Shown here: piece by piece, positions 1 to 64,000 of the stretch
How positions within the stretch are numbered: the stretch's first letter is position 1
Layout of the letters: the number at the start of each line of letters is the position of its first letter
Origin: an uncultured Candidatus Saccharimonas sp.
Lineage (GTDB): Bacteria; Patescibacteriota; Saccharimonadia; Saccharimonadales; Saccharimonadaceae
DNA length: 64,000 nucleotides
Reading direction: 5' to 3'
NCBI GenBank assembly: GCA_963518805.1
Contig: CAUQKG010000001.1
Coordinates: forward strand, 133,968 to 197,967
The notes under the pieces: generated by a model
Told to the model about the DNA's origin: nothing
Seen by the model: the letters and a program-made list of their open reading frames with translations, nothing else
Database searches by the model: none
Translations under genes and position numbers: made by a program

Positions 1-642
1 AATATTTTCGCTCCCAACTTCAATAACCTGATTGAACGCATCAGTAGTAATTTTTTTATAGCCATCAGTCCCCGTCAATTCTTTATTCATTGCCTGCTCA
101 ACGCCATAATTTCCACCATTATCATTCACAAAACCAAGAACTTGCGCAGCTAAATTTCCTTCAGGATAAACTCGGCGAGTTTCTGCGGTAAATCCGACCC
201 CATGAAATTTCTTTTCACGAATTGCATTTGCCTGTTTTAATGAAAGTTTAGTTCCAACAACTTGGTATCGTGTGCTGGTTTTTTCGAAAAGCTTTTCGAA
301 ATCATCTCTTAAATTTCCGCCAGCAATTTTTCTAAATTCTGAAATAATTTCACTTTTTTTAACTTTTTTCGAATTTGCAATTTCTTGCGGGTCAATCCAA
401 AGCGTATAAACAGTTTCATTCAAAACCATTTTAGTTAGTTTTTTGCCGTCCATTGCGTAAATTAAACCGCGTTGAGCTTTAATTTCGAATTGTTTTCTCT
501 GACCTTTATCGGCACGAGCACGATAATCTGCGCCTTCAATAACTTGCAAGAAAAAAAGCCGAACCACAATTACCGCAAAAACCCCTAAAATTGAGACTGC
601 GAGATAACCTGTTCGACTTTTATTCTTAAAACCTAAAATCAT
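1..642 (-). CDS. ftsI: Class B penicillin-binding protein (FtsI/PBP2 family), N-terminal part; runs off the window edge
   Basis: Not in the ORF track. Hand translation from ATG 642: MILGFKNKSRTGYLAVSILGVFAVIVVRLFFLQVIEG...AQRGLIYAMDG...RRVYPEGNLAAQVLGFVND..GNYGVEQAMNKELTGTDG. This shows a TM helix and the RG.I, R.YP.G and G..G.E motifs of the PBP dimerisation domain. It lies downstream of rsmH-ftsL. Confidence 0.9.
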   Translation of the reverse strand, partial: MILGFKNKSRTGYLAVSILGVFAVIVVRLFFLQVIEGADYRARADKGQRKQFEIKAQRGLIYAMDGKKLTKMVLNETVYTLWIDPQEIANSKKVKKSEIISEFRKIAGGNLRDDFEKLFEKTSTRYQVVGTKLSLKQANAIREKKFHGVGFTAETRRVYPEGNLAAQVLGFVNDNGGNYGVEQAMNKELTGTDGYKKITTDAFNQVIEVGSENI

Positions 643-692
643 ATAATTCTATTTTATCACACTTTTTGTGATTTTTCGAAAAAAGCTTAACC

Positions 693-1055
693 TTATTTTG
701 CGTAAGAAACTGACGCCGGAGTTGTCATTTTCTTTGCGACTTCGCTATTTTCAATATTCGAAAGCGCTGTAAGTCGTGCATTTTCCACTTCTAAATCAGC
801 CTTTTTAGTTTCTAAATCTGAAATTTTCGAATCAATTTGCTGAATTTCGTTTCCATAAAGTGCTGGTTTAGAAGAATTCATTAAGAAGATAATTCCAAGA
901 ACCGCAATCAAAACACCAAGCATCAAAAATTGCGTTACTGCACCAAGTTTTGCTGTTGGCTGAAAAATAGCGATGTTGTTATTTCTTCCATATGACCGCG
1001 ACGAAACTTGTGTTTGGCGACGGCGACTAACATAATTTGTGTTTGTTTTATACAT
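693..1055 (-). CDS. ftsL: FtsL-like bitopic cell-division protein
   Basis: Basic N-tail, single TM helix, then a coiled coil (ISDLETKKADLEVENARL). Canonical position between rsmH and ftsI. Confidence 0.7.
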   Translation of the reverse strand: MYKTNTNYVSRRRQTQVSSRSYGRNNNIAIFQPTAKLGAVTQFLMLGVLIAVLGIIFLMNSSKPALYGNEIQQIDSKISDLETKKADLEVENARLTALSNIENSEVAKKMTTPASVSYAK

Positions 1056-1093
1056 TGGTTTTTTGTTGCATTAAATTTAATATTCAATAAAAT

Positions 1094-1125
1094 AAAGCAC
1101 CAGACCAGTTTTTGGCTGGTGCCTT
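1094..1125 (-). terminator. Strong hairpin (terminator/attenuator-like) between rsmH and ftsL
   Basis: Minus strand AAGGCACCAG-CCA-aaaac-TGG-t-CTGGTGCTTT followed by ATTTTATT. Confidence 0.55.
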
Positions 1126-1179
1126 AAAGTTTAGTTTCTGTTTTAAATTTTTGTTTTTGTTTTTCGAAAGTGTCAAATA

Positions 1180-1245
1180 CTATCGAAAATTAACTTTTAC
1201 GCGAGCTTGTTCATTAGCGTAGCTTACTTTGATTGTTTTTGGCAT
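1180..1245 (-). CDS. Putative 21-aa small ORF MPKTIKVSYANEQARVKVNFR
   Basis: AAAGGAGG-cgag-ATG just after the rsmH stop; open for 21 codons to TAG. Too short for the ORF track. Confidence 0.5.
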   Translation of the reverse strand: MPKTIKVSYANEQARVKVNFR

Positions 1246-1263
1246 CTCGCCTCCTTTTGTTTT

Positions 1264-2160
1264 TTATTTTCTAATGCTCACTCGCAACTTTGCGCTGCGG
1301 GCTCGCGGATTATTAACATCTTCTTTCGCGCCATCAAGCGGTTTTTTGGTAATCGTCTGAAATTTAGACTCCAAACCTTTTTTCGAATCATCTTTGAAAT
1401 AATTCTTCACTATTTTATCTTCAAGACTGTGAAAAGTTATAATTCCAACTCTTCCACCTGAATTTAACAGTTTCGGAAGCAATTTTAAAACCTCTTCAAC
1501 TTGTTGAAGTTCATTATTTACAGCGATTCGAATCGCCTGAAAAGTGCGCGTTGCGGGGTGCGTTTTTTGCCAACCGCCTTTGTGCACGCTTAAAATTAAA
1601 TCAGCCAGCTGTGTTGTGGTCTCAATTCTCTGCTTTTTTCGAACTTCTAAAATTTTCGAAACGATTCTTTCAGCAAAACCGCGCTTTTCTTCGCCAAATT
1701 CAATTAAAATTTGCAAAAGTTCGTTCTTGCTTGCGAAATTCACAATATCTGCCGCTGTTTTTTTCTGCGCAGGATTCATTCGCATATCAAGTGGGCCATC
1801 TTTTCGAAAAGAAAATCCCCTTTCTGCAATATCTAACTGAGGTGAAGAAACACCCAAATCTGCCAAAATTATATCAAATTTTTGACCTCTTTTTACCAAT
1901 TCTTTTGCGGCCGAAAGAAAATCTTTATGTAAAATCTCTACACCTTCATTTTTAAACCGTTGAAGCGTGCGAATTGCATTTTCATCTCTATCAACTAAAA
2001 CCGAGTTTTCGAAATTCTCGGTTATACGCAAAAATTCGCCAGCATGTCCTCCGTATCCTGCCGTAAAATCGAGATAACTTTCACCTCTCTTTGGCTGGAT
2101 TTGTTGTAGACTCGCTTGCAATAAAACTGGTATGTGAACTGATTCTTCTGTGTAATTCAT
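1264..2160 (-). CDS. rsmH: 16S rRNA m4C1402 methyltransferase RsmH (MraW)
   Basis: Motifs HIPVLL, D.T.G.GGH, DLGVSSPQLD..ERGFSF..DGPLDMRM, HPATRTFQAIRIAVN.EL, TFHSLED, NPRARSAKLR. Confidence 0.98.
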   Translation of the reverse strand: MNYTEESVHIPVLLQASLQQIQPKRGESYLDFTAGYGGHAGEFLRITENFENSVLVDRDENAIRTLQRFKNEGVEILHKDFLSAAKELVKRGQKFDIILADLGVSSPQLDIAERGFSFRKDGPLDMRMNPAQKKTAADIVNFASKNELLQILIEFGEEKRGFAERIVSKILEVRKKQRIETTTQLADLILSVHKGGWQKTHPATRTFQAIRIAVNNELQQVEEVLKLLPKLLNSGGRVGIITFHSLEDKIVKNYFKDDSKKGLESKFQTITKKPLDGAKEDVNNPRARSAKLRVSIRK

Positions 2161-2472
2161 AAATTTAAAGCCACCTAACTGATGATTAAACTTTTTGTTT
2201 TTGTTATATTTTTGTTTTAAGATTCATTATAAGTTTAGCTTTTTGCTTGGCGTATAGCCAACCATATTGCTGTTTGAGAGACTTATATATGAGGTGGAGT
2301 TTTATTTTGGGAGGTTTTAAAATGTGCTCCAGCTATTATTTTAACCTGGTTACTGGAATTTGTCCAGCTGTTTAATCACCAGATAGTTGACCTTAAATTA
2401 AAAACTACATCTATTTTAACGTGCTTTTATTTTTGTTTAGTGGTTTTTCTGTTTGTTTCTGTCGTTGCCACT
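2161..2472 (-). promoter_or_regulatory. Long structured 5' leader of the rsmH-ftsL-ftsI operon (candidate cis-regulatory RNA)
   Basis: About 310 nt between a predicted promoter and the rsmH ATG, with no long ORF. Several hairpins separated by A/C-rich linkers; CCACCT (2292-2297) is complementary to the RBS-like AGGTGG (2171-2176). Confidence 0.5.
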
Positions 2473-2478
2473 GATTTA

Positions 2479-2507
2479 AGTTTACCGCGAATTATTTTTT
2501 TTCGCAA
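2479..2507 (-). promoter_or_regulatory. Sigma70-type promoter for the dcw operon
   Basis: TTGCGA-17 nt-TAAACT on the minus strand. Confidence 0.55.
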
Positions 2508-2555
2508 GACCTATTTTTGACAAACACGCAAATTTAGAAATAATTTTTTATATAT

Positions 2556-2637
2556 TTTTCCACAACTATGTGGAAAAGCAAGCCTTTTAACAGATATTCC
2601 CTACTTTTCCACAATGCTTGTGTTTAATTGTTGAAAA
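2556..2637. promoter_or_regulatory. Cluster of DnaA-box-like 9-mers
   Basis: TTTTCCACA 2556-2564, TGTGGAAAA 2569-2577, TTTTCCACA 2605-2613, TGTTGAAAA 2629-2637; each 1-2 mismatches from TTATCCACA. Confidence 0.55.
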
Positions 2638-2642
2638 CTAAT

Positions 2643-2948
2643 TTATCGTGGTAATAATGCACTGATTAATGCAGTATCATATTTTGTTGTAGACATTAGA
2701 ATCAAGTATGTTACAAACACAACAAGATTAATTGCAAGTGAAAGAACCAAAACCGCACTTCGAAAATCTTGCGTAACTTGGTCAACCACTACTGTTCCAT
2801 CTTCAGCAATAATAATTCCATTATTTGTAAGCAAAGTTTTAGCTTTTTTAATATCTTGCTCTTTTTTTGAAACTTTTGTAGTTTTTTCAGCAACTTTTTT
2901 AGCCGTAGTTTTTTTATCATTTTTTGTTTCTGTTTGTTTTTTTGTCAT
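2643..2948 (-). CDS. Small membrane protein of unknown function (Lys-rich N-terminus, C-terminal TM)
   Basis: 101-aa ORF, AAGGA RBS, own promoter TTGACT-17-TATTAT at ~3005-3034. Confidence 0.75.
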   Translation of the reverse strand: MTKKQTETKNDKKTTAKKVAEKTTKVSKKEQDIKKAKTLLTNNGIIIAEDGTVVVDQVTQDFRSAVLVLSLAINLVVFVTYLILMSTTKYDTALISALLPR

Positions 2949-3202
2949 TTTTATTCCTTTTTTGTTTATTTGACTTATTTGATCTTAATTGTTTTGTATG
3001 TTTATATAATAGCATAAGTTTTTTTAAAAGTCAATAGCTTTTATGTTAAATTATTTTAAAACAATTCAAAGTCCTCTGCCAGCAATTTGTTCGCTTGACA
3101 TTATGTAGTTTTATTTTATTTTATTTTTTGACATTTCACTATTTTATTGTTTCCATATTTTTAAACCTTCGACCTTATTATTCCATAAAAAATGATTAAA
3201 AA

Positions 3203-3234
3203 TAAAAGACTCTCGAATTTTCGAAAGTCTTTTA
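3203..3234 (-). terminator. Intrinsic terminator downstream of the Pif1 helicase
   Basis: Inverted repeat TAAAAGACT...AGTCTTTTA. Confidence 0.6.
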
Positions 3235-3274
3235 CACACAATTCATTTTAAAACAAATTAACTAAAAATCTACT

Positions 3275-4822
3275 TTATATAGCATCTTCGCCAAAGAGTT
3301 TTTTTATGCGAGCTTCAATCGAACCTTTATGGCGACCGAGTTCTTTACTCAATTTAACAATTAAATCTGCGTCAATTTTACCATTTTCGAAAACCATTTC
3401 TTGTAATTTCGAATCATCAACAAGTCTCCACGCACGATATGCATTTGGATATTCTTGCCGCATTTTTTCAAGCTTTTCAGCCCAAGTTGTTCTTGACGGT
3501 TGCGTCTCAACAATTTCGCCCGCTTCACGCTTTTTAGCAACTTCTTTTAAGTGCGAAAAACGATTTTCGGCTTTTAAGCTTTCATTTTTAAGTCTAGAAT
3601 CAATCTTTTGCGCCTCTTCACTAACCATCAAAGCAGTGCGATTTATTCCGAGTAAATAAAGTCTATCAAGAGAGCGAACACGAGAAAGCGCCACATAGCC
3701 CATTCCTTCAGAAAAGGCTTTTCGAAGATCGATTCGTGCAGCATCGAGTGTCATCCCCTGACTTTTATGAACTGTAATTGCATATGCTAGTCTGAGTGGA
3801 ATTTGCATAATACTTGCCCGCTTTTTTTCGCCATCACGCATCTCCCAGGTTTCTGGCACCATTGTAATAATTTTACCATTTCGAAATTGAACAATCGGGT
3901 AATCTGTTAATCTTTCAAAATCAATAACTTCACCAATTGAACCATTAACATATTGGCGGTTTTGGGCATTTTTTACTGCCATCACTAAAGCACCTTTTTT
4001 AAGTCGCAAGAGTTCTGGCGCAAGAACAGATTTCTGTAAAGTTTCAACGTAGTTTTTAGCACCAGTTGTAGTTTGCACAAAATGAAACTCCTCGCCTTCA
4101 AGTTCGGCAAGCTTTTGCTCATTAATTTTATCAACATCGATATTAGTAGTGTGGAGTTCGGTTAAGTTTTTCGAAAAATCATCACTTTCAAAATTAGGCT
4201 CAATATCAATGCGATCAAGCAAACTTTGAGCGTGTTTTCGGCGTAAATCATCCGCTCTAAGTGCGTTTAAAATTTCAGATAGTTCATCATTTTTTTGGCG
4301 GTGATTTTCCTCAAGATAGCAAACCGTAAATTCAGCAAGCTTCCAGGCATTCGAATGAATTGCAAAGTCGCCAGTTCGCCCACCAGCTCGATTAATTGGC
4401 GGTAGCTGAAAAAAATCGCCACATAAAATTACTTGAATCCCACCAAAAGGTTTGTCGTTTTGGCGAATTGTACGACAGATTTCTTCAACCATGTCTAGTC
4501 GAAAATCGTGCAACATAGAGATTTCATCAATCACCAGAATATCTGTATTTTTAATAATTTCGGCCCGCGTTTTCGGAAATTTTTCGAAAAATTTTCTCGA
4601 AAGATAATCGTAGATTCCAATTCCGCTCCAAGCGTGAATAGTGTTTCCTCCAAGATGAGTTGCCGCTAAACCAGTGGTAGCCGTAACGCTAACCTTTTTT
4701 CCAGAATTTTTTGCAAGCTTAATAAACTGGTTAAGAGTGAAAGTTTTTCCACTTCCTGCTGCACCAGTTAAAAAAACATTTTCGCCTGAGAGCATAATCT
4801 CCAATGCTAACGCTTGCTTCAT
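3275..4822 (-). CDS. Pif1-family SF1B DNA helicase with a small C-terminal helical domain
   Basis: Walker A GAAGSGKT, TATTGLAA, TIHAW, DEISM, FGGIQVILCGDFFQLPPI, QIPLRLAYAITVHKSQGMTLD, GYVALSRVR. Confidence 0.92.
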   Translation of the reverse strand: MKQALALEIMLSGENVFLTGAAGSGKTFTLNQFIKLAKNSGKKVSVTATTGLAATHLGGNTIHAWSGIGIYDYLSRKFFEKFPKTRAEIIKNTDILVIDEISMLHDFRLDMVEEICRTIRQNDKPFGGIQVILCGDFFQLPPINRAGGRTGDFAIHSNAWKLAEFTVCYLEENHRQKNDELSEILNALRADDLRRKHAQSLLDRIDIEPNFESDDFSKNLTELHTTNIDVDKINEQKLAELEGEEFHFVQTTTGAKNYVETLQKSVLAPELLRLKKGALVMAVKNAQNRQYVNGSIGEVIDFERLTDYPIVQFRNGKIITMVPETWEMRDGEKKRASIMQIPLRLAYAITVHKSQGMTLDAARIDLRKAFSEGMGYVALSRVRSLDRLYLLGINRTALMVSEEAQKIDSRLKNESLKAENRFSHLKEVAKKREAGEIVETQPSRTTWAEKLEKMRQEYPNAYRAWRLVDDSKLQEMVFENGKIDADLIVKLSKELGRHKGSIEARIKKLFGEDAI

Positions 4823-4831
4823 TTTCGAAAA

Positions 4832-5929
4832 CTACTCACTTCCGATCATTCGTGGTGGTTCACCTTCTGGCTCATCGAGCAATTTTTTACTTTTAATTTC
4901 ATAACGACGCCCAGTGATTTCGCTCAAGATATAATCTTCATTAATTAAATTCACAAACATATCCAAATCGTTGCCATCCATAATAATGATCGCACCGTTA
5001 TCGTCCGTCATTAATTCAAGCTGCATTTCATCGGCATATTCAACCACTTTTTCTTGCGAAATCTCACCAATTTCATCCATTTTTTGTAATTTTGTAGCAG
5101 CCTTTTTATGCTCGCGAACCAAAGTTTGCAAATCTAAACCATCAGGAAAACTCAATTTATACTTTCTTTCGATTTCCAAAACTTTTTCATCAGCTAAAAC
5201 CTGTTTTTTATAATCATAATTAAAGAGTTTTTCAAATTTTCCTTGATTAAAAATAAAGATATCATTATTTACGATCAAAACTTGATTATCTGGCTGGATT
5301 TTTAAACCAAATTCAGGCTCAAATGCACCAAATTTGCCATTTCGAAATTCCCAAGCAGTTGCTCCGCGCAAAACCTGCCCTTGCATAATTTGTTTAGCAA
5401 CATAAAATTTCTCGCCTTTCGAATTTGTAAACCTTGCCAAAATTCCCTTAATCCGCTTAAAATCATGTTCGTTTTCGTTAAATTCCACAATATCGGAATA
5501 TTGCGTTTCGATTATATTTAATAGCGCATCAGCGTGTTGAACTTTTTGTAGTTCAGTTTTTAAAAGCACATCTTTGCTAGCGCTACCATCCATTTCATAG
5601 TCTCGAACACTCAAACCAGTTCCTGCGCCCATATTTACAAAGTTTATCATATCAAACAAAAACAACGGCTTAATTTGTGAGTTTAGTTCGCTTGAAAAAC
5701 TAGTCGTAAAAGGCACAAAATTTTTATTAAATAAGAAAAATTCTACATCAAGCTCATTTTTGATTCCATCAGTCAAATTTGCCCACTGAAAAATATCAGT
5801 TGACTCATCTTTTTTCGAATTTTCAGCTTCTTTAAAATTTTGGTCTTTATTTGAAATTTCAACCTCGTTTTCTGTCAAATTTTCAGTATTTTTGATCTCA
5901 GCGTTTTCAGTTCTAATATCTTCTTCCAT
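4832..5929 (-). CDS. DUF4868 / Kiwa KwaB-like domain protein
   Basis: 365 aa. The segment IFIFNQGKFEKLFNY...FVNLINEDYILSEITGRRYE resembles the KwaB/DUF4868 C-terminus (recognised from memory, needs an HMM check). 9 bp upstream of the helicase. Confidence 0.55.
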   Translation of the reverse strand: MEEDIRTENAEIKNTENLTENEVEISNKDQNFKEAENSKKDESTDIFQWANLTDGIKNELDVEFFLFNKNFVPFTTSFSSELNSQIKPLFLFDMINFVNMGAGTGLSVRDYEMDGSASKDVLLKTELQKVQHADALLNIIETQYSDIVEFNENEHDFKRIKGILARFTNSKGEKFYVAKQIMQGQVLRGATAWEFRNGKFGAFEPEFGLKIQPDNQVLIVNNDIFIFNQGKFEKLFNYDYKKQVLADEKVLEIERKYKLSFPDGLDLQTLVREHKKAATKLQKMDEIGEISQEKVVEYADEMQLELMTDDNGAIIIMDGNDLDMFVNLINEDYILSEITGRRYEIKSKKLLDEPEGEPPRMIGSE

Positions 5930-6093
5930 ATAGTTCTATTATACCATAAACATTAAAAAATATTTACACCTGATTAAATATTAGTTGAACATCAGAAAAA
6001 ACTCACCTACCAATAACTCGTTATGCTTCTAGAATAGGGCAAATAATCTCTTTAAAAATTGCCGATTTTAACTTTTTATGATACAATTTAAGA

Positions 6094-7320
6094 ATGAAAA
6101 TTGCAATCTTAGGGCGTCAGCCAAGTATCGGAATCGCCGAACTCGAAAGTGTTTTTGGCGGCGATAAAATTCGCGTGCTGGGTGATTATGCCTGTCTTAT
6201 TGAAACTGAAAAACTCAATGTTTCGCATTTTGGCTCAATTTTAAAAACCGGCCAAGTTATTTTTGAAGTTAATTCAACAGATTGGCGAGATGTTTCAAAA
6301 AAAATAACCAAAATTTTTGAACACGATTTTGCGGATTTTAGCGGAAAAATTACACTAGGAATTTCAGCTTATGGCTTAAAAATTCGAGCGAACGAAGTTT
6401 CAAAAACTGGATCAATCATTAAACAAAAGCTCAAAAATCACGGTGTTTCGGTGCGAATAATTCCTTCGAAAACCGCCGAGCTTTCAACTGCAATTTCGCA
6501 CAATAATAAGCTTGGCTTAAGCGAGAAAAAAATCGAAATTTTAGTAGTTCGTGGCGGCAAAAAAACAATTATTGCCTTAAGTGAAGGCGCGCAAAATATC
6601 ACAAGCTATGCTAGACGCGATCAAAACAGGCCAAAGCGCGATGCTTTTGTTGGGATGCTGCCACCAAAACTCGCCCAAACAATGATCAATCTCGGTGTTG
6701 GCGAAAATCAGCCGCAAATTCAAGCACTTTTTGGCAAAAAAACTTTCGAAAAGCCAGAAATCCTTGATCCTTTTTGCGGCACTGGCACAGTTATTCAAGA
6801 AGCGCTTTTAAAAGGTTTTAAAGCAAACGGAACAGATTTGAGTGAAAAAATGGTGGAATTTTCGAAAGAAAATAGTGATTGGTTTGTGCGAGAGTTTAAA
6901 CCGCATGGTGAAATAGGAGAAATTTACGAAGCTGACGCTACAATTGAAAAATGGAGTTTTGCAAAAAAACTTTCAAGCGTGGTTTGCGAGGCCTACTTAG
7001 GGCAACCATTCTCTGCTCCACCTTCGCCCAAAAAATTAGCAGAAGTTCGCGAAAATTGCAATCGTATAATTTCGAACTTTTTAAAGAATTTATCGCAGCA
7101 AATTCCAGAAGATACACAGGTGTGTATTGCCGTTCCCGCTTGGAAAACACAAAATGGTAATTTTTCTCACCTTCCACTTATTGACTTTTTAAATGAGCTG
7201 GGGTATAATAGAAAGGAATTTATGCGCGTTAAACCACAAGATCTAATATATTATCGCGAAGATCAAGTTGTGGCGCGTGAATTATTAGTACTAATAAGGA
7301 GTAAAAATGTCACACGTTAA
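6094..7320 (+). CDS. Trm11/TrmG10-like SAM-dependent RNA methyltransferase
   Basis: MLPPKLAQTMIN, ILDPFCGTG motif I, G.D, DAT, CEAYLG. Overlaps the rpmA start. Confidence 0.7.
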   Translation: MKIAILGRQPSIGIAELESVFGGDKIRVLGDYACLIETEKLNVSHFGSILKTGQVIFEVNSTDWRDVSKKITKIFEHDFADFSGKITLGISAYGLKIRANEVSKTGSIIKQKLKNHGVSVRIIPSKTAELSTAISHNNKLGLSEKKIEILVVRGGKKTIIALSEGAQNITSYARRDQNRPKRDAFVGMLPPKLAQTMINLGVGENQPQIQALFGKKTFEKPEILDPFCGTGTVIQEALLKGFKANGTDLSEKMVEFSKENSDWFVREFKPHGEIGEIYEADATIEKWSFAKKLSSVVCEAYLGQPFSAPPSPKKLAEVRENCNRIISNFLKNLSQQIPEDTQVCIAVPAWKTQNGNFSHLPLIDFLNELGYNRKEFMRVKPQDLIYYREDQVVARELLVLIRSKNVTR

Positions 7321-7585
7321 ATCGGGTGGTTCAAGTAAGAACGTCCATAATAACGCCGGTCAACGCCTTGGTGTTAAACGATTTGGTGGCCAAAAAGTTA
7401 ACGAGGGCGAAGTTCTCGTTCGACAGACTGGTGCAACTAAATTGGCTGGTGAAGGAACTTACATGAGCCGAAATTTCACGATTCACGCTAAACAAGACGG
7501 TGTTGTGAAATTTAAACAAATCCAAAAACGCAAATTTACTGGTAAAACTGAACGACGCACAGTTGTAGAAGTTGTTGCTGCGTAA
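7307..7585 (+). CDS. rpmA: 50S ribosomal protein bL27
   Basis: MSHVKSGGSSKN...QRLGVKRFGGQKV..GEVLVRQTG. Confidence 0.97.
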   Translation: MSHVKSGGSSKNVHNNAGQRLGVKRFGGQKVNEGEVLVRQTGATKLAGEGTYMSRNFTIHAKQDGVVKFKQIQKRKFTGKTERRTVVEVVAA

Positions 7586-7592
7586 TTGCAAT

Positions 7593-7629
7593 AAAAAATG
7601 AGCCTTTCGAAAGATTGACTCATTTTTTT
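7593..7629. terminator. Bidirectional intrinsic terminator
   Basis: AAAAAATGAG-cctttcgaaagattga-CTCATTTTTTT between convergent genes. Confidence 0.7.
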
Positions 7630-7650
7630 ATTTTACTTATTTTGGATCTG

Positions 7651-8040
7651 CTAGTAATCTTCACCGATGCCCAAATGTTCACGAACCTTTTCAATCACAT
7701 CTGAAATCATCACCTGAGATTTAACAAGATAATCATCAACACCAAGTTTTTCAGCTCGCTCACGATCACTTTCTTGGCTTAAAGCGGTAAGCATAATAAT
7801 TTGCAGATTCATTGTTTCAGGAGTGTTTCGAAGAATATCCAATACATCAAAGCCTGATATTTTTGGCATCATTGCATCAAGAATCATTAAATCTGGACGA
7901 TATTTTAAAGCTGCAGTTAACGCTTGCTCGCCGTCATGAACTTCCATGACCTCAAAATCTTCCATCTCAAGCCTTGCACGATATACACTAGCCAAAACCT
8001 CATCATCTTCAACTAATAAGATCTTTTTTCTTGCTTCCAT
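7651..8040 (-). CDS. Single-domain response regulator (receiver only)
   Basis: ILLVEDD, PDLMILDAMMPKISGFDVL, IIMLTA, DYLVKS. The AGGAGGGA RBS supports ATG 8040. Confidence 0.92.
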   Translation of the reverse strand: MEARKKILLVEDDEVLASVYRARLEMEDFEVMEVHDGEQALTAALKYRPDLMILDAMMPKISGFDVLDILRNTPETMNLQIIMLTALSQESDRERAEKLGVDDYLVKSQVMISDVIEKVREHLGIGEDY

Positions 8041-8064
8041 TTTCCCTCCTAAACAGTTCTGCAA

Positions 8065-9246
8065 TTATTTTAAAATTTCTAACGCCTTGTTTTTCTGAAT
8101 ATCATTCAATAAATAACTTTCACCCTTTGGTGCGCTTACTTTAATATCTGGCGAAACTCCATTGTTTGAAATATTTTTTCCGCTTGGCGTAAACCATTTT
8201 GCGATCGTAACTTTTAGTAAAGCTCCATTTGGCATATCAATAGTAGTTTGAACACTTCCCTTACCATAAGATTTTTCACCAACAATTTGAGCAGCTTTAT
8301 GTTCTTTTAAAGCTCCTGCAACGATTTCGCTCGCACTAGCCGAGGAGCCGTCAAGCAGAATTACGGTTTTAATACCTTTCAAAGGATTATCACCAGTTGC
8401 TCGAATCTCTTCAACCGTTTTTGAACCAGTTTTTTCACTAACGATCAAAGCATTTTTTTCAAGCCACAAGCTTGCAACGGTTTTTGCAGCCTGAACATAT
8501 CCGCCGCCATTTCCGCGCAAATCTAAAATAACTTTCGAAATTCCCTCATTTTTAATTTCTTCGGCATATTTTTTTGCCAAAACACCAGTTTCACTATCAA
8601 ATCGATAAATTGAAAGTGTTGCAACACCATCTTTCTTCGAGAGTTCTACGCTTGGATTTTCAATTTTCGCACGCGTTACTGAGAATTCTTTCTTTTCATT
8701 TCCACGAACAACACCAATCTTAACAGTTGTTCCAGCATCTCCACGAATTTTTTTGCTAATTTCAGAAGTATTTTCTTTCGAAACGTCTTCACCATTAACT
8801 TTCGAAATCACATCGCCTGCTAAAATTCCTGCACTTTCAGCTGGATTTTTAGCTAAAACTCGCACAACTTTAACAGAGTCGCCATCTTTTGCGAGCTCAA
8901 CACCAATTCCTGTTCCAACATCACCACTTAAGCTTTTATTGAATTCTTCGGCCTCTTTAGAAGTCATATACTCCGTGTATTTGTCTCCTACCGCTTCAAC
9001 TAGACCTTTCGAAGCACCATCGATAATTTTTTGCTTATCAATTTCACCATCAAAATTTGAAGCTAAAGCTTGATAAGTTTTTTCGACATTCGAAAAATCT
9101 ATTCTTTCAACTTTTTTCAGCCCAAAAACTGGTGCGATTAAATTTCTAATATCATCTATTCTTGAGCCACCCGCAAAGCCTAAAACCAGCATAAAAACTG
9201 AAACCAAAACTAGCGTTGAGCGTTCAACTTTTTTACCTCTATCCAT
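8065..9246 (-). CDS. ctpA: S41 carboxyl-terminal processing protease with PDZ domain
   Basis: GIGVEL, PDZ domain, LDLRGNGGG, SASASEIVAGAL, SYGKGSVQ, KWFTPSG. Confidence 0.95.
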   Translation of the reverse strand: MDRGKKVERSTLVLVSVFMLVLGFAGGSRIDDIRNLIAPVFGLKKVERIDFSNVEKTYQALASNFDGEIDKQKIIDGASKGLVEAVGDKYTEYMTSKEAEEFNKSLSGDVGTGIGVELAKDGDSVKVVRVLAKNPAESAGILAGDVISKVNGEDVSKENTSEISKKIRGDAGTTVKIGVVRGNEKKEFSVTRAKIENPSVELSKKDGVATLSIYRFDSETGVLAKKYAEEIKNEGISKVILDLRGNGGGYVQAAKTVASLWLEKNALIVSEKTGSKTVEEIRATGDNPLKGIKTVILLDGSSASASEIVAGALKEHKAAQIVGEKSYGKGSVQTTIDMPNGALLKVTIAKWFTPSGKNISNNGVSPDIKVSAPKGESYLLNDIQKNKALEILK

Positions 9247-9422
9247 AAATTACATTATATCACAAAAGCACAAGCATAACAAAAAATAAGTTCTGAAAGA
9301 TAAGTTTAATATTTAATGCCTTAAAATAATTTGAATTTGCACTGTTCTTATGATGATTTTGCCAAAATTTCTCTTTTCTGTAATTGTGGCAGGTTAGACA
9401 TATTTTAGAAGAGTGTTAAAAT

Positions 9423-9449
9423 AAAAAAAGACCCATTTTTTTGGGTCTT
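9423..9449 (-). terminator. Terminator of the 80-aa orphan gene
   Basis: AAGACCCA/TGGGTCTT stem with a U-tract on the minus strand. Confidence 0.65.
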
Positions 9450-9458
9450 GAAGACTGA

Positions 9459-9701
9459 CTAAAAGTTTTTTCTACTTAGATATTCTTTTTCCCAAGCGAT
9501 TGCCTTTTTTTGAACTTTAAGCTCATATGAAGTTCTTTTCTCTAACCTCATACTTCTAATTTCTTTCCGAGCTTCTTGGTAAAATTTCAGTTGTTCAATT
9601 GCTGGATAAAGTGCATCAGCTATTATTCGTATTAATTCCCTACTATCCTCTATTAATCTTCTATTAAATTCAGCAATAGTTATTTGTTTTTCTTCTGACA
9701 T
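9459..9701 (-). CDS. Hypothetical 80-aa helical protein
   Basis: AGGAGGGG RBS and its own terminator; no recognisable motif. Confidence 0.65.
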   Translation of the reverse strand: MSEEKQITIAEFNRRLIEDSRELIRIIADALYPAIEQLKFYQEARKEIRSMRLEKRTSYELKVQKKAIAWEKEYLSRKNF

Positions 9702-10010
9702 TTTAAACCCCCTCCTGCTGTATACTAAAAAGTATAAAAAATAGTTTTTAGAAAATCAATTTTTTGGAATATTGACTAACTGTCTTTTATATGTGCTTGT
9801 TCATAAACATGGTTTATATTGTTATGAACAGCTTTTCATATTATAACTCAGCTATCCAACAATTACAATAGTAAAATTACATGATTAAATTTAGAAACAT
9901 TTGTATTTTTGTTAAAATTATATCTTTTTTGAATATTTTTATATAAAATACTTTCATTCCATTTAAAAACAACATCTCATTTTCTAAATAATTTAAAGCA
10001 AATAATAAAA

Positions 10011-10035
10011 AGCGAGTCAGATAAACTGGCTCGCT
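10011..10035 (-). terminator. Terminator of the CHAP gene
   Basis: AGCGAG.CAG / CTGGCTCGCT stem, with a U-tract on the minus strand. Confidence 0.65.
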
Positions 10036-10040
10036 AAATA

Positions 10041-11228
10041 TTAATCGAAATACACATATGTATCATAAGTGCTTGCAGGTACAGTCATTGTTGAGAATTG
10101 GCCCCATCTACCATTAACAAAGTAATTATATTGCGAAATCGTAACCATGTTACCATTCACAGCCTCAACCCAAACAATGTGACCATATTGACCGCCGCTC
10201 ATCACACCGAATGATCCAACTTTTGGAGTACTTCCAGTTCGGAATCCTGCTCGCCGTGCGCTAGCCGGCACATCTTTAGCATTACCCCAATATGCAGCGT
10301 TGATACCTTTTGTTGCGCGCAATTTCCATGCAACATAGCTCACGCATTGGCGACAACCATAGCCATAGCCATCTGTTCCATTTCCATCTGCACCACCATA
10401 GCTTACCGCATTCGCATCAACAAAACAGTTTGCATCATTCCAGGGGTAGCTACTTGTTCCAGCAATAGCCTGTGGAAGAGACCCACTACCAGCTGCTCGA
10501 GCTGCACGCAAAATTTGAGCCTGAATCATATCTTGCTGTTGTTTTTGAAGAGCTGCTTTTTGTGAATTTCGCTCATTCGCATATTTTGTATATTCTGCTT
10601 CATCATTTTTAGTCTGAGAAATTAACTCATTCTGCTGGCGAATTTTTTCCTGAAGCGCAGATTCAGCTTGTTGTTGATTAGTTAAAGCAACCTTAACTTC
10701 ATCTCGCTGTTTTTCAAGTTCAGCTTTTGCTCGCTTGATACTATCAACCTTTTCAACCAACTGATTCTTTACTGCACTTTGGTATTCAAAATTGTCAAGC
10801 GCTTTCGAAAGATTGTTGCTTCCTGCGATCCGCTCGATCGGTGTTACATCATCTTCAATTGACATTGCAGCCAAAATAGAGCCTAAAGCACTTCGATTCC
10901 GTTCGATACTTTCTTCATTATTTTTAATTTCAATCTGCAGCTTTTCGTATTGTTTTTGATATATTGCAATTTGAGATTGAATTGTAGCTTTTTCATTTTC
11001 AATACCACTAAGCTCATTCTGAAGTGTTTGTGCTTTATTTCTAAGATCACTTGCGCGAGATTCTGCACCACTAATTTGAGATTCCAGCGCTTTAATTTCT
11101 TTATCGAGCTGTTCAACACTCTTCTCGGCTTCAGCACTTTTTGGTAAAGCTGCAATAACACCAGCGACAACAACTCCAAGAGAAATTGCGCCATTTATCA
11201 CTAAATTCTTCTTCTTAATCTTTTTCAT
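10041..11228 (-). CDS. PcsB/CwlO-like secreted peptidoglycan hydrolase (coiled coil plus CHAP domain)
   Basis: Signal peptide from MKKIKKK (11228), long coiled coil, then QCVSYVAW, WGNA and YGHIVWVE CHAP motifs. Directly downstream of ftsEX. Confidence 0.88.
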   Translation of the reverse strand: MKKIKKKNLVINGAISLGVVVAGVIAALPKSAEAEKSVEQLDKEIKALESQISGAESRASDLRNKAQTLQNELSGIENEKATIQSQIAIYQKQYEKLQIEIKNNEESIERNRSALGSILAAMSIEDDVTPIERIAGSNNLSKALDNFEYQSAVKNQLVEKVDSIKRAKAELEKQRDEVKVALTNQQQAESALQEKIRQQNELISQTKNDEAEYTKYANERNSQKAALQKQQQDMIQAQILRAARAAGSGSLPQAIAGTSSYPWNDANCFVDANAVSYGGADGNGTDGYGYGCRQCVSYVAWKLRATKGINAAYWGNAKDVPASARRAGFRTGSTPKVGSFGVMSGGQYGHIVWVEAVNGNMVTISQYNYFVNGRWGQFSTMTVPASTYDTYVYFD

Positions 11229-11304
11229 AGTTATTTTTCTTTTTATTTTAACTTTATTATTAAATAGATTATACCACAATCTTTTTTCGAAAACAAGCCC
11301 CTTT

Positions 11305-12336: not shown

Positions 12337-13019
12337 TATTGCCTATACTCCCCTTGTGATTGGTCGTGAGTAATTTTTCCACCATTTAAGGTAATTACAC
12401 GCCGTTTAAGTTTATTTACAATTTCAACATTATGCGTAGTTAAGACAACTGTTGTTCCGTAATCATTAATTTTTTCAAGTAGTCTAATAATATCCCAACT
12501 GTGCTTTGGGTCAAGATTCCCCGTTGGTTCATCGGCAATTAGAATTTTTGGCTGGCGAGCAATTGCGCGGGCGATCGCCACACGCTGCCTTTCACCACCA
12601 CTTAACTGATGTGGAAAATTTCCCTCTTTTCCTTCAAGGCCAACAAGCTTAATAACTTTTGGAACAGTCGCTTTAATCTCATGATTAGTCATTCCGGCAA
12701 TTTCAAGTGCAAAAGCTACATTTTCGAAAACGGTTCGATTTGGCAAAAGCTTAAAATCTTGAAAAATAACACCAATTCGGCGCCGCAAAAGTGGAATATC
12801 CTTATCTCGCAATTTGTCATAATCAATTCCACCAACAACAATTTTACCGCTGGTTTGTTTTTCTTCACGAGTGAGCATTTTTAAAAGTGAAGATTTTCCT
12901 GCACCACTCGTTCCAACCAAAATAACAAACTCTTTTGGCTTAATATGAAGGCTAACCCTGTTAATCGCAGGAGTTTTTGAATTACCATAAACTTTTGTCA
13001 CACGATCTAATAATATCAT
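12336..13019 (-). CDS. ftsE: Cell-division ATP-binding protein FtsE
   Basis: GTSGAGKS, LRRRIGVIFQDFKLL, LSGGERQRVAIARA, ADEPTGNLDP. Confidence 0.96.
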   Translation of the reverse strand: MILLDRVTKVYGNSKTPAINRVSLHIKPKEFVILVGTSGAGKSSLLKMLTREEKQTSGKIVVGGIDYDKLRDKDIPLLRRRIGVIFQDFKLLPNRTVFENVAFALEIAGMTNHEIKATVPKVIKLVGLEGKEGNFPHQLSGGERQRVAIARAIARQPKILIADEPTGNLDPKHSWDIIRLLEKINDYGTTVVLTTHNVEIVNKLKRRVITLNGGKITHDQSQGEYRQ

Positions 13020-13105
13020 CACTTTTTATTATACCAGCTTTTTTCAAAGTGTTCAAGCTTATTTAAAAATTTTAACTAAAATCACCCTTTCGAGTGATTT
13101 TAGAG

Positions 13106-13663: not shown

Positions 13664-13684
13664 GATTCGATTATATCATATTAT

Positions 13685-61132: not shown

Positions 61133-61253
61133 TTCTGTCCTTGTTTATTTTTAATTTATTTTACTCCCGTATTTTACCACAAGCGTAATAAAAAGTCAAC
61201 ACTTTTTTAAAAAATAAAATCGATATTTCTATTGATTTTATTTTTTCTAGATA

Positions 61254-61730
61254 TTAAGCTGCAATTTTTCCAGAAATTGCTCGGATAATGTTTAAAACAC
61301 GTTTCCCCGTTGGAACTTCTCGGCGAACAGATTTCATTGTGCGAATTTCTTGACCAAGTTGCTTTTGCGTTTTAAATTGTTTTTCCCGCAAGCTGAATTC
61401 GTTTTCACGGCCTTTATAAGTTTCAAAATTTGCATTATAATCTTCGAAATGCGTAATATGCATATTTCGAATTTCATCTTCATGCAAGAAAAAACTACTA
61501 TTTTCGCGGTCAGCACTCCGTTCAGTTCGTGCATAAATATCATCCAAATCTTCAAGAGCTTCTTTTTTTGAACTCTCTCGAGATTCTTCAATTTCTGTTT
61601 GCTGTTCTGCACTTAAACTTTCGGGAGAGTCAAATTTAAAATCTTGAAATTCTCCAGAATTATTCTCTTGCTCAAGAGATTTTTTATCTTGCTCGTTCGT
61701 GCTGTAATCGTTTATCTTAAATTTTTCCAT
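61254..61730 (-). CDS. Hypothetical 158-aa charged protein
   Basis: Own promoter TTGACA-17-TATAAT (~61783-61811) and AAAGG RBS. Confidence 0.7.
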   Translation of the reverse strand: MEKFKINDYSTNEQDKKSLEQENNSGEFQDFKFDSPESLSAEQQTEIEESRESSKKEALEDLDDIYARTERSADRENSSFFLHEDEIRNMHITHFEDYNANFETYKGRENEFSLREKQFKTQKQLGQEIRTMKSVRREVPTGKRVLNIIRAISGKIAA

Positions 61731-61766
61731 TTTTGCCTTTTGATTTTTTATGTTTTTGTTTAAAAA

Positions 61767-61800
61767 AATAACTTATGCTTGTATTATAGCATAAGTTATT
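61767..61800. promoter_or_regulatory. Perfect 13-bp inverted repeat straddling the -10 box (operator-like)
   Basis: AATAACTTATGCT-tgtattat-AGCATAAGTTATT. Confidence 0.6.
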
Positions 61801-61819
61801 TTAATTGTCAATATTTTGG

Positions 61820-64000
61820 TTAAGCTTTTTTAAGTGAAATTTTTACTTCTGAACCTTCAACTTTTACAATCTGAATAAAATCAAGTTCATTTTCTGAAAT
61901 TTCAGCCTTTGTGGCCAAAACTTCTTTCGAAATTTCTTGTTCAAATTTCTTGAATGCGTCAAGAACTTCAGTATTTTCAGATGTAAACTTAAGTTCAATT
62001 CTATCATCAACGTTTAGACCAGCTTTTTTGCGCGCGGCCTGAATGTGGCGAATAATCTCACGCATCAAGCCTTCTGCACGAAGCTCAGGAGTTAATTCAA
62101 AATTAAATTCAACACCCTCACCACCAAACTCAACACTTTTAACATTTAACTCTTCCATTAAAATTGGCACGAAATCAAAAGATTTTGCATTTTGCGGAAC
62201 TTTTACGCTAGCTAGTGGCTGACGAATTTTTACGCCATTTTTCGCTCGAAGCGCAAGAGCTTCATTCACGTAGCCACGAACTTCAGCCATTTCAGCAAGT
62301 AAGTTCTCATCAATCTCACCAGCTCCTGGCCAATCTTTCAAATGAACTGAGCCATCACCAACCATTTTACCCCAAAGTTCTTCTGCTAAGAAAGGTACGA
62401 ATGGCGCAAGAATCAACGCAAGATAGCTCAAAACATAGTGGAGTGTTTGATAGGCCTGAAGTTTATCAGCGCCGTTTTCACTCTTCCAGAAACGACGTCG
62501 TGAACGGCGTACAAACCAGTTTGAAGCATCATCGAGGAACAGCAAAACACCTTCAAGAGCGCGTGGAATATTATAAACGTTCATATTTTCAGTAATTTCG
62601 TTTCGAAGCTCATGAACACGGCTCACAATCCATTTATCAAGCGGATTTTCAAGATTTTTCGAAGGGTCTTTGAGCTCGCCATTAAATTCCCAACCATCGA
62701 CACTGGCATACATCGTGAAGAAATCATACATATTCCAAATCATCGAAAGTTTGCGTGCAACATCCGAAACATCTTTGTCGTGAAGTGCAAAATCTTCACC
62801 ATTCAAAAGTGGGCTCGTTAGCAACAAAAATCGCAAACTATCAGCTGAATATTGATCCATTAGCTCGTTCGGGTCTGTGTAATTACCAAGCGATTTACTC
62901 ATTTTTCGGCCGTCATTTCCTGCAACAACACCAGTTGTAATCACGTTTTTGAAGGCATTTTTGCCAAACAAAGCAGTGTTTACGGCATGAACATAATAGA
63001 ACCACGCACGAACCTGGCCAATGTATTCAACAATAAAATCACCCGGGAAATTCTTTTCGAACTTCTCTTTATTTTCGAAAGGATAATGGAACTGGGCAAA
63101 TGGCATTGAACCACTTTCGAACCAACAGTCAAGCACTTTATCAATTCGAGTGTATTTTTCGCCATCAATTTCAAAAGTGATGTCATCAACCCAAGGTCGG
63201 TGATAATCTTCAAGCTCTACGCCGCTCAACTCTTTAAGTTCAGCATAAGAACCAACCACGCGAATCTTGCCGCTTTCAGACTTCCAAACTGGCATTGCAG
63301 TCGCCCAAAAACGATCGCGCGATAAATTCCAATCTGGTGCGGCTTCAAGATTTTTTTCAAAACGGCCGTGCTTCAAATGCGCTGGGAACCAATTGATATT
63401 TTCATTTTGCTCAAGCATTAATTCTTTTTGTCCTTGAATATCAAAGAACCAGCTTGGGTGTGCACGATACATTAAACGCTGACCAGTTCGTGGATTGTGC
63501 GGATACTCGTGACGAATGTAATCGATTCTCCAAACCACGCCACGCTCTTTTAAAATTTTGGCTAGCGGTTTGTTAAATTCCCAAACATCTTTTCCGGCAA
63601 ATTCACCGTTCAAATATTTACCAAATTCATCCAAAACGTGAAAAACTGGAATTCCATATTTTTTACCAAAGTTGAAGTCTTCTTCACCATATGCTGGCGC
63701 CGAATGAACAATTCCTGTTCCGCTTTCAAGAGAAACATAATCTGCACCCCAAACTTTATAAGCATTCTCTTCACCTTCACCAGAATATTTCGAATCTTCA
63801 AAAAGTGGCTCATAACTCAAACCAATCAGTTCTGTACCGTCGATCAAATTTACAATTTCAAAAGGAATTGGTTGCTTTTTCTCATCAACAAAAACTTTTT
63901 CGAGCAAGTCTTTTGCTAGAATAAAGAATTCATCGCCAACTTTTACTTTTGCGTAGGTAATTTCAGGATTCACAAACAAGCCCATATTGGCCGGCAAAGT
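61820..64000 (-). CDS. ileS: Isoleucine--tRNA ligase, type 2; N-terminus outside the window
   Basis: GTGIVH.AP.YGE.D, DWNLSR.RFW, DCWFESGSMP, KMSKSLGN; type-2 C-terminus ELRAEG..REIIR.IQ..RK.AGL.V.DRI. Confidence 0.96.
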   Translation of the reverse strand, partial: TLPANMGLFVNPEITYAKVKVGDEFFILAKDLLEKVFVDEKKQPIPFEIVNLIDGTELIGLSYEPLFEDSKYSGEGEENAYKVWGADYVSLESGTGIVHSAPAYGEEDFNFGKKYGIPVFHVLDEFGKYLNGEFAGKDVWEFNKPLAKILKERGVVWRIDYIRHEYPHNPRTGQRLMYRAHPSWFFDIQGQKELMLEQNENINWFPAHLKHGRFEKNLEAAPDWNLSRDRFWATAMPVWKSESGKIRVVGSYAELKELSGVELEDYHRPWVDDITFEIDGEKYTRIDKVLDCWFESGSMPFAQFHYPFENKEKFEKNFPGDFIVEYIGQVRAWFYYVHAVNTALFGKNAFKNVITTGVVAGNDGRKMSKSLGNYTDPNELMDQYSADSLRFLLLTSPLLNGEDFALHDKDVSDVARKLSMIWNMYDFFTMYASVDGWEFNGELKDPSKNLENPLDKWIVSRVHELRNEITENMNVYNIPRALEGVLLFLDDASNWFVRRSRRRFWKSENGADKLQAYQTLHYVLSYLALILAPFVPFLAEELWGKMVGDGSVHLKDWPGAGEIDENLLAEMAEVRGYVNEALALRAKNGVKIRQPLASVKVPQNAKSFDFVPILMEELNVKSVEFGGEGVEFNFELTPELRAEGLMREIIRHIQAARKKAGLNVDDRIELKFTSENTEVLDAFKKFEQEISKEVLATKAEISENELDFIQIVKVEGSEVKISLKKA

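Follow-up and report, generated by a model that had tools for sequence, protein, structure and literature searches.

A hyper-abundant palindromic octamer in a Saccharibacterial genus, possibly a self-DNA tag in natural transformation

The stretch of DNA analysed here (the window) comprises 64,000 nucleotides of an uncultured Candidatus Saccharimonas sp. (GenBank assembly GCA_963518805.1, contig CAUQKG010000001.1, positions 133,968 to 197,967; G000:C1:133968-197967 in our numbering) and is marked throughout by copies of the palindrome TTCGAA, many of them lying within the octamer TTTCGAAA. The source genome (G000) consists of 644,518 bp in 7 contigs, is 99% complete and has 35.4% GC. A first-pass annotation, made from the letters of the window alone, had described TTCGAA as a chromosome-wide signature similar to the cyanobacterial highly iterated palindrome HIP1 or to DNA uptake sequences, a description that was borne out by k-mer counts, Markov nulls and codon-aware nulls. 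The array, the genes and the individual sites discussed below are collected in Table 1, together with two methylase loci of the same genome that lie elsewhere.

Table 1. Features of the window and of the source genome referred to in the text (ORF, open reading frame)
Feature	Position	Strand	Remarks
TTCGAA dispersed array	1..64000	.	199 sites: 86 as full TTTCGAAA, 180 in ORF calls, 19 outside
rsmH (MraW family)	1264..2160	-	PF01795 match, E = 9e-91
TTTCGAAA	3219..3226	.	outside ORF calls; within imperfect A-run/T-run hairpin, by eye
Methylase-like 408-aa ORF	6094..7320	+	PF01555 match at 23 bits, below cut-off; sole methylase-like match of the window
TTTCGAAA	7605..7612	.	outside ORF calls; centre of imperfect A-run/T-run hairpin, by eye; hexamer starts at 7606 (given as 7604 in the first-pass annotation)
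TTTCGAAA	17307..17314	.	outside ORF calls; centre of imperfect A-run/T-run hairpin, by eye
TTTCGAAA	47099..47106	.	outside ORF calls; hairpin not clear
Island of fused PF00145 + PF01555 methylase (592 aa) and adjacent 423-aa ORF	G000 contig 4, 34668-37850		outside the window; GGPPCQGFS and ENV motifs; DPPY-type N6/N4 part
PF13651 methylase with adjacent GmrSD_N + HNH protein	G000 contig 3, 104911-107018

The number of TTCGAA sites in the window is far above expectation, since 100 dinucleotide-preserving shuffles gave 46.1 ± 5.9 sites, with a maximum of 61, and none reached 199. The whole genome holds 1939 sites, and the density is about 3.0-3.1 per kb in window and genome alike. All 14 positions counted by hand in nucleotides 1-2013 are exact TTCGAA; the density of about 7 per kb derived from them is correct for the first 2 kb, which are a local high, and does not hold as an average. 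Genome-wide, the observed/expected ratio of TTCGAA under Markov models of order 0, 1, 2, 3 and 4 is 8.8, 4.1, 2.5, 1.9 and 1.15, respectively. The word ranks among the five commonest hexamers of the genome, beside pure A/T words, whereas the runner-up palindrome is enriched just 1.66-fold and the majority of palindromes are avoided. Furthermore, TTTCGAAA is the commonest 8-mer of G000, with 866 copies (about 1 per 750 bases) and an observed/expected ratio of 9.9 at order 1.

Several observations identify the full octamer TTTCGAAA, with TTCGAA as its core, as the real unit. The two halves are coupled, as AA follows TTCG in 41.6% of cases and every other NNCG prefix in 9-18%. Among the 16 NTCGAN words TTCGAA alone is enriched (4.9-fold, the remaining words reaching at most 1.05), and among the 16 NTTCGAAN words TTTCGAAA alone (4.3-fold, the others at most 1.22). 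The enrichment is confined to words with a CG centre. In G000 the composition of the flanks of TTCGAA is that of the background past ±2 bp, and therefore TTCGAA is no part of a longer repeat. Sites are dispersed with near-exponential spacing genome-wide (mean 328 bp, coefficient of variation 1.02), and full 10-kb bins hold 12-42 of them each. The hexamer is also present in 13 of the 35 tRNA genes of G000, presumably in the T-loop, a trivial 13 of the 1939 sites; the sole tRNA gene of the window is that of tRNA-Phe, at 19875-19950.

Coding constraints do not account for this abundance. Crude ORF calls (the 576 longest non-overlapping ORFs of at least 90 aa) cover 88.6% of G000 and contain 1764 TTCGAA sites, distributed over the three frames as 463, 505 and 796. 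The remaining 73 kb, which still include short genes and RNA genes, contain 175 sites (2.4 per kb), and their order-1 observed/expected ratio is 4.7, as compared to 4.1 in coding DNA. When synonymous codons were shuffled within genes, 591 ± 20 coding sites were expected, an excess of 3.0-fold for the 6-mer and 5.05-fold for the 8-mer. Shuffling of codon order gave 403 ± 19 (4.4-fold and 13-fold), and the strictest null, a third-position shuffle preserving amino acids, codon usage and dinucleotides, gave 1109 ± 18 (1.59-fold, or about 37 standard deviations, for the 6-mer and 2.17-fold for the 8-mer; 100 shuffles in each case). The excess persists in every frame under all three codon nulls, and therefore it is no one-frame codon-pair effect. 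The first-pass annotation had named in advance what would speak against it, namely a loss of the excess under a synonymous or higher-order null or a codon-pair bias in one frame, and the excess survived in all frames. The same holds on a smaller scale in rsmH, where six sites (1382, 1527, 1638, 1655, 1803 and 2008) cover three frames and encode F-E in one, F-R-K, V-R-K or I-R-I in another and V-S-K or D-S-K in the third. It had been argued from this gene that simple amino-acid bias is not the cause, and the peptides are as named there.

The octamer is restricted in its distribution. Among the 35 species genomes of the genus 31 are carriers, 26 with 617-1187 copies and five with 163-375, and the other four (G004, G008, G010 and G041, the low-count genomes) have 14-19 copies, below a control word of the same composition. 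The ratio of TTCGAA to AAGCTT is 0.2 in G010, 1.1-1.4 in G002, G023 and G029, 3.3 in G000, 4.7 in G042 and 9.7 in G025; strong carriers number 28, across differing base compositions, and weak carriers three. In G010 only 92 TTCGAA sites are found and the word is mildly avoided (0.67), while in G024 (42.6% GC; 205 kb of about 657 kb analysed) the 6-mer and 8-mer counts are topped by TTCGAA and TTTCGAAA, with the same coupling of halves. Outside the genus, we analysed an order sample of 401 genomes from 71 families and 255 genera and a phylum sample of 401 genomes from 320 genera, and the results hold for the genomes sampled. Three hundred and ninety-eight genomes of the order sample lie outside the genus (seven of these unpublished, with the conclusion independent of them), and they contain 0-56 copies of TTTCGAAA; 20 of them represent 12 further genera of the family to which the genus belongs. 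In the phylum sample, one genome of which is unpublished, none comes near G000; the highest is G573, of an unrelated family (f148), with 318 copies against 21 of the control word, and in this lineage the word may have arisen a second time, independently and more weakly. A mild rise of TTTCGAAA was also seen in G731 and G637, of the same family f148, and in G693.

Several distances place the low-count genomes outside the carriers. Nucleotide identity to positions 1-20000 of the window is 92-96% in 15 genomes and 78-90% in eight, and goes down to 66-77% in the genus. RpoC is 93-99% identical to that of G000 in the close and mid carriers, 87-89% in the weak or distant carriers and 83-85% in three low-count genomes (G004 gave no match), as compared to 67-72% in other genera and 63% in other families. 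Median identities over 117 proteins likewise put G010 farthest from G000, G022 and G024 (0.685-0.697), G024 being closer to G000 and G022 (0.742-0.749). Judged from these distances rather than from a rooted multi-gene tree, the low-count genomes are probably the deepest lineages of the genus, and the word would have arisen soon after their split. A tree of elongation factor EF-G, which put G010 within the carriers and G002 among the close genomes, was judged unreliable against the 117-protein distances and the RpoC identities. The EF-G of G010 is 95% identical to that of G000 (fusA, locus L009 5429-7519) despite a median protein identity of about 70% between the two genomes, and in G004 and G008 EF-G has diverged (84%) to the level seen in other genera, which suggests that fusA may have been recombined or transferred within the genus.

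The word has also left its trace in genes and proteins. TTCGAA reaches 3.27 per kb in genes that G000 has in common with G006, G022 and G010, 2.67 in those restricted to the carrier clade, 2.20 in patchily distributed genes and 1.46 in genes of G000 only, and a 3.2-kb island found in G000 only has none. Its density is 2.2-2.6 per kb in the most conserved genes and 3.3-3.6 elsewhere. The fraction of motif-encoded residues identical to G010 is 0.51 in frame 0, 0.66 in frame 1 and 0.50 in frame 2, against a background of 0.66. Additionally, F-E shows the top odds increase of all well-sampled dipeptides when G000 is compared with G010 (984 vs 457 occurrences), S-K is fourth, and the odds of ISK, LSK, FSK, VSK and FRK are up 1.9-3.0-fold. 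The word has thus been strong enough to roughly double the peptides that it encodes.

To follow the word over time, G000 was aligned with G006 (575,940 bp at 93.8% identity) and with G022 (528,672 bp at 81.3%), and substitutions in G000 and G006 were polarised by G022. Between G000 and G006, TTCGAA is kept at 1488 of 1836 aligned sites (81.0%), as compared to 71.2% for all hexamers and 59-68% for CG-containing one-mismatch neighbours, and it is conserved above background also at synonymous positions and outside ORFs. About 60% of the differences (217/348 and 157/269) are exchanges between TTCGAA and TTCAAA or TTTGAA. At third positions, AT>GC transitions occur at a rate of 0.0127 in the motif flanks and 0.0139 in the outer positions of the 8-mer, against 0.0404 in the background, so that the flanks change 3.2 times more slowly. 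Protection falls off outside the complete word: the rate is 0.0257 at positions -2/+7 and 0.0241 in half-sites, which are just 1.7-fold protected, and words with identical flanks and other centres gave 0.0389 (TG/CA), 0.0433 (TTGCAA) and 0.0274 (TTTAAA), with 0.0415 for the palindrome AAGCTT. Measured from the edge of the hexamer, the AT>GC rate is 0.021 one bp out and 0.030 two bp out, climbs to 0.037-0.051 at 3-5 bp (background 0.041) and dips modestly once more at 6-10 bp (0.028-0.033). Because the rate is back at background by 3-5 bp, it is mainly the integrity of the 8-mer that is protected and not a broad neighbourhood; a zone of local repair around the motif was rejected for the same distance decay, the protection peaking on the word and being gone 3-5 bp out. 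All these data show that TTTCGAAA is actively maintained as a word.

The central CpG was compared with other CpG contexts. Loss of the motif by CpG transition (0.057) is near the median of 0.065 for 81 NNCGNN contexts, that is, the motif shows no hypermutability with respect to other CpGs, and the gain from TTCAAA or TTTGAA (0.052) is 1.8 times the median of 0.029 for the 81 contexts and 3.8 times that of CTCGAA. TTTGAA and TTCAAA are not depleted (observed/expected 0.88), other one-mismatch neighbours ranging from 0.44 to 1.29. Separately from the motif, the carrier clade shows a general, context-dependent rise of CpG, with rho going from 0.70 to 1.16-1.52. When the CpGs of the motif are excluded, rho is 0.70 in G010, 1.07 in G000, 1.13 in G022 and 1.43 in G024 (partial), with TCGA, GCGC, CCGC and GCGA up 2- to 8-fold in the clade and ACGT and CCGG unchanged. 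The GC content of the carrier clade is raised as well (35-43% vs 32%), and at third positions the flux from AT to GC is larger than the reverse flux in the lineages of both G000 and G006.

The first-pass annotation had also placed the motif at or near the apices of intergenic hairpins. Three of its four sites fit by eye (Table 1), whereas the class as a whole shows no excess: 15.4% of the 175 TTCGAA sites outside ORFs lie at a hairpin apex (at least 8 centred pairs), as compared to 11.6-18.0% for four control palindromes. Perfect dyad symmetry stops at 8-10 bp.

With respect to methylation, three DNA methylases were found in G000: a fused m5C + N6/N4 enzyme, a type I HsdM and an EcoRI-family N6-adenine methylase (PF13651). 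No methylase family is common to all 31 carriers, as PF00145 occurs in 6 of the 35 genomes (one low-count genome included), PF01555 above cut-off in 12, a strong HsdM in 12 and PF13651 in 16; the PF01555 match of G010 is a weak hit on a conserved ORF of about 410 aa. Vsr (PF03852) was not found in G000. The methylase-like ORF of the window was rejected as the methylase of the motif, since by eye it is an RNA methylase and its weak match recurs on an ORF of about 410-450 aa in 32 of the 35 genus genomes, including the low-count G010 and G004. The fused enzyme was likewise rejected as the driver: G000 alone has it, other genomes give partial matches of at most 46% identity, and its 3.2-kb island is the one devoid of TTCGAA. 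Next to it lies a 423-aa Cys/His-rich ORF, HNH-like by eye, and both are inserted between fusA and tuf. A third candidate, a protein of about 940 aa with a GNPPFVG motif, presumably MmeI-like, occurs in several carriers, among them G006 (contig 1, about 27266-27817, 937-aa frame) and G022 (24678-27500), and was discarded as it is absent from both G000 and G010.

The PF13651 methylase and its adjacent GmrSD_N-HNH protein form a cassette with a more suggestive distribution. The pair lies in the same insert of about 3.1 kb between two conserved genes in 13 genomes across the deepest carrier splits, and in G010 the genes flanking this site are adjacent, 235 bp apart. A 14th copy stands at a contig end with its flank unseen, and five genomes have a paralogous pair at another locus. 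None of the four low-count genomes has the methylase, which is also missing from 15 of the 31 carriers; a profile search confirmed its absence from the carriers G009, G001, G033, G012 and G002 (98-99% complete), four of which keep 756-896 copies of TTTCGAAA. It is absent from G573, G731, G637 and G693 as well. The alleles are 41-66% identical to that of G000 over the full-length alignment. The HNH partner is 57-68% identical across many phyla and archaea, with the methylase flanking it in 74 of 80 loci, and the cassette resembles a widespread mobile module. In the DNA surrounding the 70 cassette loci taken as outside the genus TTCGAA is not enriched (66 observed vs 187 expected), and its avoidance there was rejected as a guide to the specificity of the cassette, because ten of the 64 palindromes have ratios still lower than its 0.35, which makes the value uninformative. 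In a sequence search of the PDB the methylase had no match and its partner only weak HNH matches. On its distribution, the pair is a marker of the clade where the word originated, and is neither necessary for the present abundance of the word nor sufficient for it elsewhere.

Taken together, the data call for a protein able to read the 8-bp dyad as a whole and for a directional force acting today. Our best reading, to which we give a probability of about 0.4, is that TTTCGAAA is a self-DNA tag in natural transformation that accumulates by molecular drive. A dimeric sequence-specific protein would read the perfect 8-bp dyad during transformation, be it in binding, uptake, processing of kin DNA or recombination, and fragments or alleles carrying the word would pass between kin slightly more often than wordless ones. 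Molecular drive could then favour mutations that create the word and disfavour those that destroy it, with no per-site fitness benefit needed, and resident recombining DNA would fill with the word over time while newly acquired DNA would stay poorer in it. In this regard, TTTCGAAA would be the Saccharibacterial counterpart of the Haemophilus and Neisseria uptake sequences, and of HIP1 as currently interpreted.

Transformation is favoured because the phylum is competent, the machinery is present, the hallmarks of uptake sequences are paralleled and HIP1 enhances transformation. The enrichment of the word over the nulls, its lineage-restricted distribution and its active maintenance agree with this reading as well. 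Other Saccharibacteria, of a different genus, are experimentally transformable via comEC (PMC10633639). ComEC is present in 34 of the 35 genus genomes, and DprA in all five tested (the four low-count genomes and G006). The palindromic octamer HIP1 raises transformation and has been proposed as an uptake signal (PMC13756078, bioRxiv 10.1101/2024.09.10.611283). Furthermore, Findlay and Redfield (2009) described three hallmarks of uptake sequences, namely inflated encoded peptides, a preference for poorly conserved genes and residues, and scarcity in genes without homologues (PMC2817400). All three are paralleled by TTCGAA, the scarcity partially, as genes found in G000 only still have 1.46 per kb. 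The more specific proposal that TTTCGAAA is a self-recognition tag read by a dimeric protein without a dedicated methylase, that it is the first uptake or transformation signal of the candidate phyla radiation and that it represents a young, independent HIP-like origin in one uncultured genus, some members of which still lack it, is, as a whole, somewhat unlikely.

A number of points weigh against a transformation tag. Every one of the hallmarks is expected from any word-specific drive, biased repair included. The four low-count genomes have ComEC and DprA just as the carriers do, and therefore the presence of the word in some members and not in others is not explained by the machinery. Unlike classical uptake sequences, asymmetric 9-12-mers that often form inverted pairs at terminators, TTTCGAAA is a short palindrome without enrichment at hairpin apices. 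Uptake sequences may have a dedicated receptor, such as the minor pilin ComP; five pilin-like ORFs were found in G000 by a motif scan, and none was apparent on the list of ORFs without a G010 hit when the two were matched by eye. The central CpG lacks protection (third-position GC>AT 0.073 vs 0.066 in the background), and a drive on the whole word predicts no unprotected CpG unless the C of the motif is about three times hypermutable. The asymmetry between flanks and centre means either that this C is about 3-fold hypermutable and equally protected, or that the centre is out of reach of the force, although CG is the one centre that is enriched. Inferred losses also exceed gains, with 134 vs 94 in G000 and 185 vs 88 in G006; the G006 lineage, with about twofold more losses than gains, also shows weaker retention with respect to control hexamers. 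Finally, gains are no more clustered with lineage-specific substitutions than losses or background (Mann-Whitney p = 0.32 and 0.71), a test for recombination tracts with little power, as DNA exchanged between close kin leaves none behind.

A gene-content screen returned 44 ORFs of G000 that are present in G006 and G022 and not in G010; besides the methylase-HNH pair, no obvious DNA-binding, nuclease or pilin candidate was seen among them (nine scanned against Pfam, the others by eye). The reverse screen gave 66 ORFs of G010 absent from G000, G006 and G022, among them a dUTPase and polyamine genes and nothing explanatory. The dUTPase (L031:19274-19657) and the spermidine synthase and AdoMet decarboxylase (L035:8061-10668) of G010 have no tblastn match in the other three genomes.

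The main rival of the transformation tag is methylation-linked biased repair, as in Elhai's model of HIP, which we regard as unlikely. Here a methylase would mark TTCGAA, and mismatches at near-cognate sites would be resolved in favour of the methylated word by a nuclease or mismatch system working with it, a ratchet that works free of selection, with PF13651 and its GmrSD_N-HNH partner as the candidate pair. TTCGAA is a type-II-like palindrome, the BstBI site, and the distribution of the insert (deep carrier splits, adjacent flanks in G010, no methylase in the low-count genomes) is what the model would ask for. The kinetics of the centre also fit a C that is hypermutable but repaired, with gain raised, loss not reduced and the other six positions protected, and the general rise of CpG in the clade points in the same direction. 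Additionally, cyanobacterial HIPs co-occur with cognate methylases (PMC4390886). The carriers that keep the word without PF13651, the five confirmed ones included, are however at odds with this explanation, as are the cassettes elsewhere without enrichment of TTCGAA and the lineage of G573, the only other one with a raised count, which has no PF13651. No other methylase family is universal, and G000 has just the three DNA methylases and no Vsr. TTTGAA and TTCAAA, the deamination products of the word, are not depleted, a CpG repair of the very-short-patch type leaves the threefold protection of the T/A flanks unexplained, and the divergence of the PF13651 alleles makes a constant specificity doubtful. 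The suggestion of the first-pass annotation that the palindrome is driven by a methyltransferase was accordingly not supported as stated, given also that the CpG of the motif is not hypermutable.

Direct selection is a further alternative, and one that we find quite improbable. Under it TTTCGAAA would be bound by a dimeric, abundant protein that is associated with the nucleoid or organises the chromosome, with weak purifying selection on each site, and Xu et al. reportedly argued that HIP1 is under selection and has a role in chromosome structure. Conservation at synonymous and non-ORF positions, the even density along contigs and the protection peaking inside the 8-mer agree with such a site. 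The strong over-representation of HIP1, 15- to 300-fold (Xu et al. 2018, PMC5861425), also lends itself to this explanation. It would need about 1900 individually selected sites, however, in an epibiont whose effective population size is inferred to be small, the central CpG is unprotected, and the candidates inspected in the gene screen (9 of the 44 ORFs by Pfam, the others by eye) included no clade-specific DNA-binding protein.

Least probable of all is that the excess derives from the usage of codons, codon pairs or amino acids, from some longer mobile repeat or from tRNA-like sequence: although higher-order context absorbs part of it (1.15 at order 4, 1.59 under the dinucleotide-preserving codon null) and some tRNA genes hold the word, the order-4 model already contains five of the six letters and is no independent null, the strictest codon null is exceeded in three frames, the excess is as strong outside ORFs, the flanks rule out a longer repeat, tRNA genes contribute a trivial share and G010, of the same genus, has so few sites, so that a codon or repeat artefact is excluded as the explanation.

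Hyper-abundant short words recognised in bacteria comprise Chi, uptake sequences and the cyanobacterial HIPs (PMC4390886). In keeping with the expectation of the first-pass annotation, literature searches found no earlier description of such a word for this group (subscription-only literature and REBASE lay outside the search), and neither 'uptake sequence' nor 'methyl' was found in the text of the 2023 Cell paper on competence. What is new here is the sequence of the word, the phylum, its recent origin within a genus and the lack of a shared methylase; a word of the HIP or uptake type was already known. The origin and function of HIP are debated even after 30 years, and a second, independent HIP-like element is now at hand in the 0.64-Mb genome of an obligate epibiont. 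As a single genus includes strong carriers, weak ones and members without the word, its origin becomes tractable by comparative genomics, and the lack of a universal methylase sets a palindrome paired with transformation apart from one paired with a methylase. Should the word raise transformation efficiency in the way of HIP1 in Synechococcus, donor DNA supplied with it could aid the genetics of Saccharibacteria. Furthermore, TTTCGAAA is, by composition, a strong marker in binning and in the detection of foreign DNA in carrier genomes.

Several known systems can be compared with this one. In E. coli, Dcm and Vsr perform very-short-patch repair, whose sequence-specific bias raises the short palindrome CCWGG, and the raised T-to-C gain in context at TTCGAA is similar. 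The present case differs in having no Vsr in G000, no universal m5C methylase, no depletion of the deamination products and a protection of the flanks besides that of the C, and the effect at TTCGAA is far above the excess of CCWGG. Restriction-site avoidance likewise concerns type-II-like 6-bp palindromes such as TTCGAA, with the opposite sign, as the word is 4-fold enriched in carriers. The uptake signal sequences of Pasteurellaceae and the DNA uptake sequences of Neisseriaceae are closer: they too have about 1 copy per kb, occur in all frames and roughly double the peptides that they encode, they prefer poorly conserved genes and residues and are scarce in genes without homologues in relatives, and they are clade-specific in a competent host (PMC2817400). 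TTTCGAAA differs from them as a palindromic 8-mer, not an asymmetric 9-12-mer, and in having no enrichment at terminator-like hairpins.

The cyanobacterial HIPs have a quasi-periodic distribution, at 10-90 kb. TTTCGAAA is, unlike HIP1 (GCGATCGC), AT-rich, and it is found in another phylum (Patescibacteria) and in a 0.64-Mb genome. It is about 10-fold over-represented over a dinucleotide model, as compared to 15- to 300-fold for HIP1 (PMC5861425), and its carriers have no common cognate methylase, whereas HIPs co-occur with cognate orphan methylases. In other respects the two are alike. As with HIP1 and the alternate cyanobacterial HIPs, we are dealing with a palindromic octamer that dominates the word counts of its genome and is dispersed over coding and non-coding DNA (PMC4390886, PMC13756078, PMC5861425, bioRxiv 10.1101/2024.09.10.611283), and, like HIP1, it is restricted to a lineage with exceptional relatives that lack it, is conserved above background and belongs to naturally transformable hosts.

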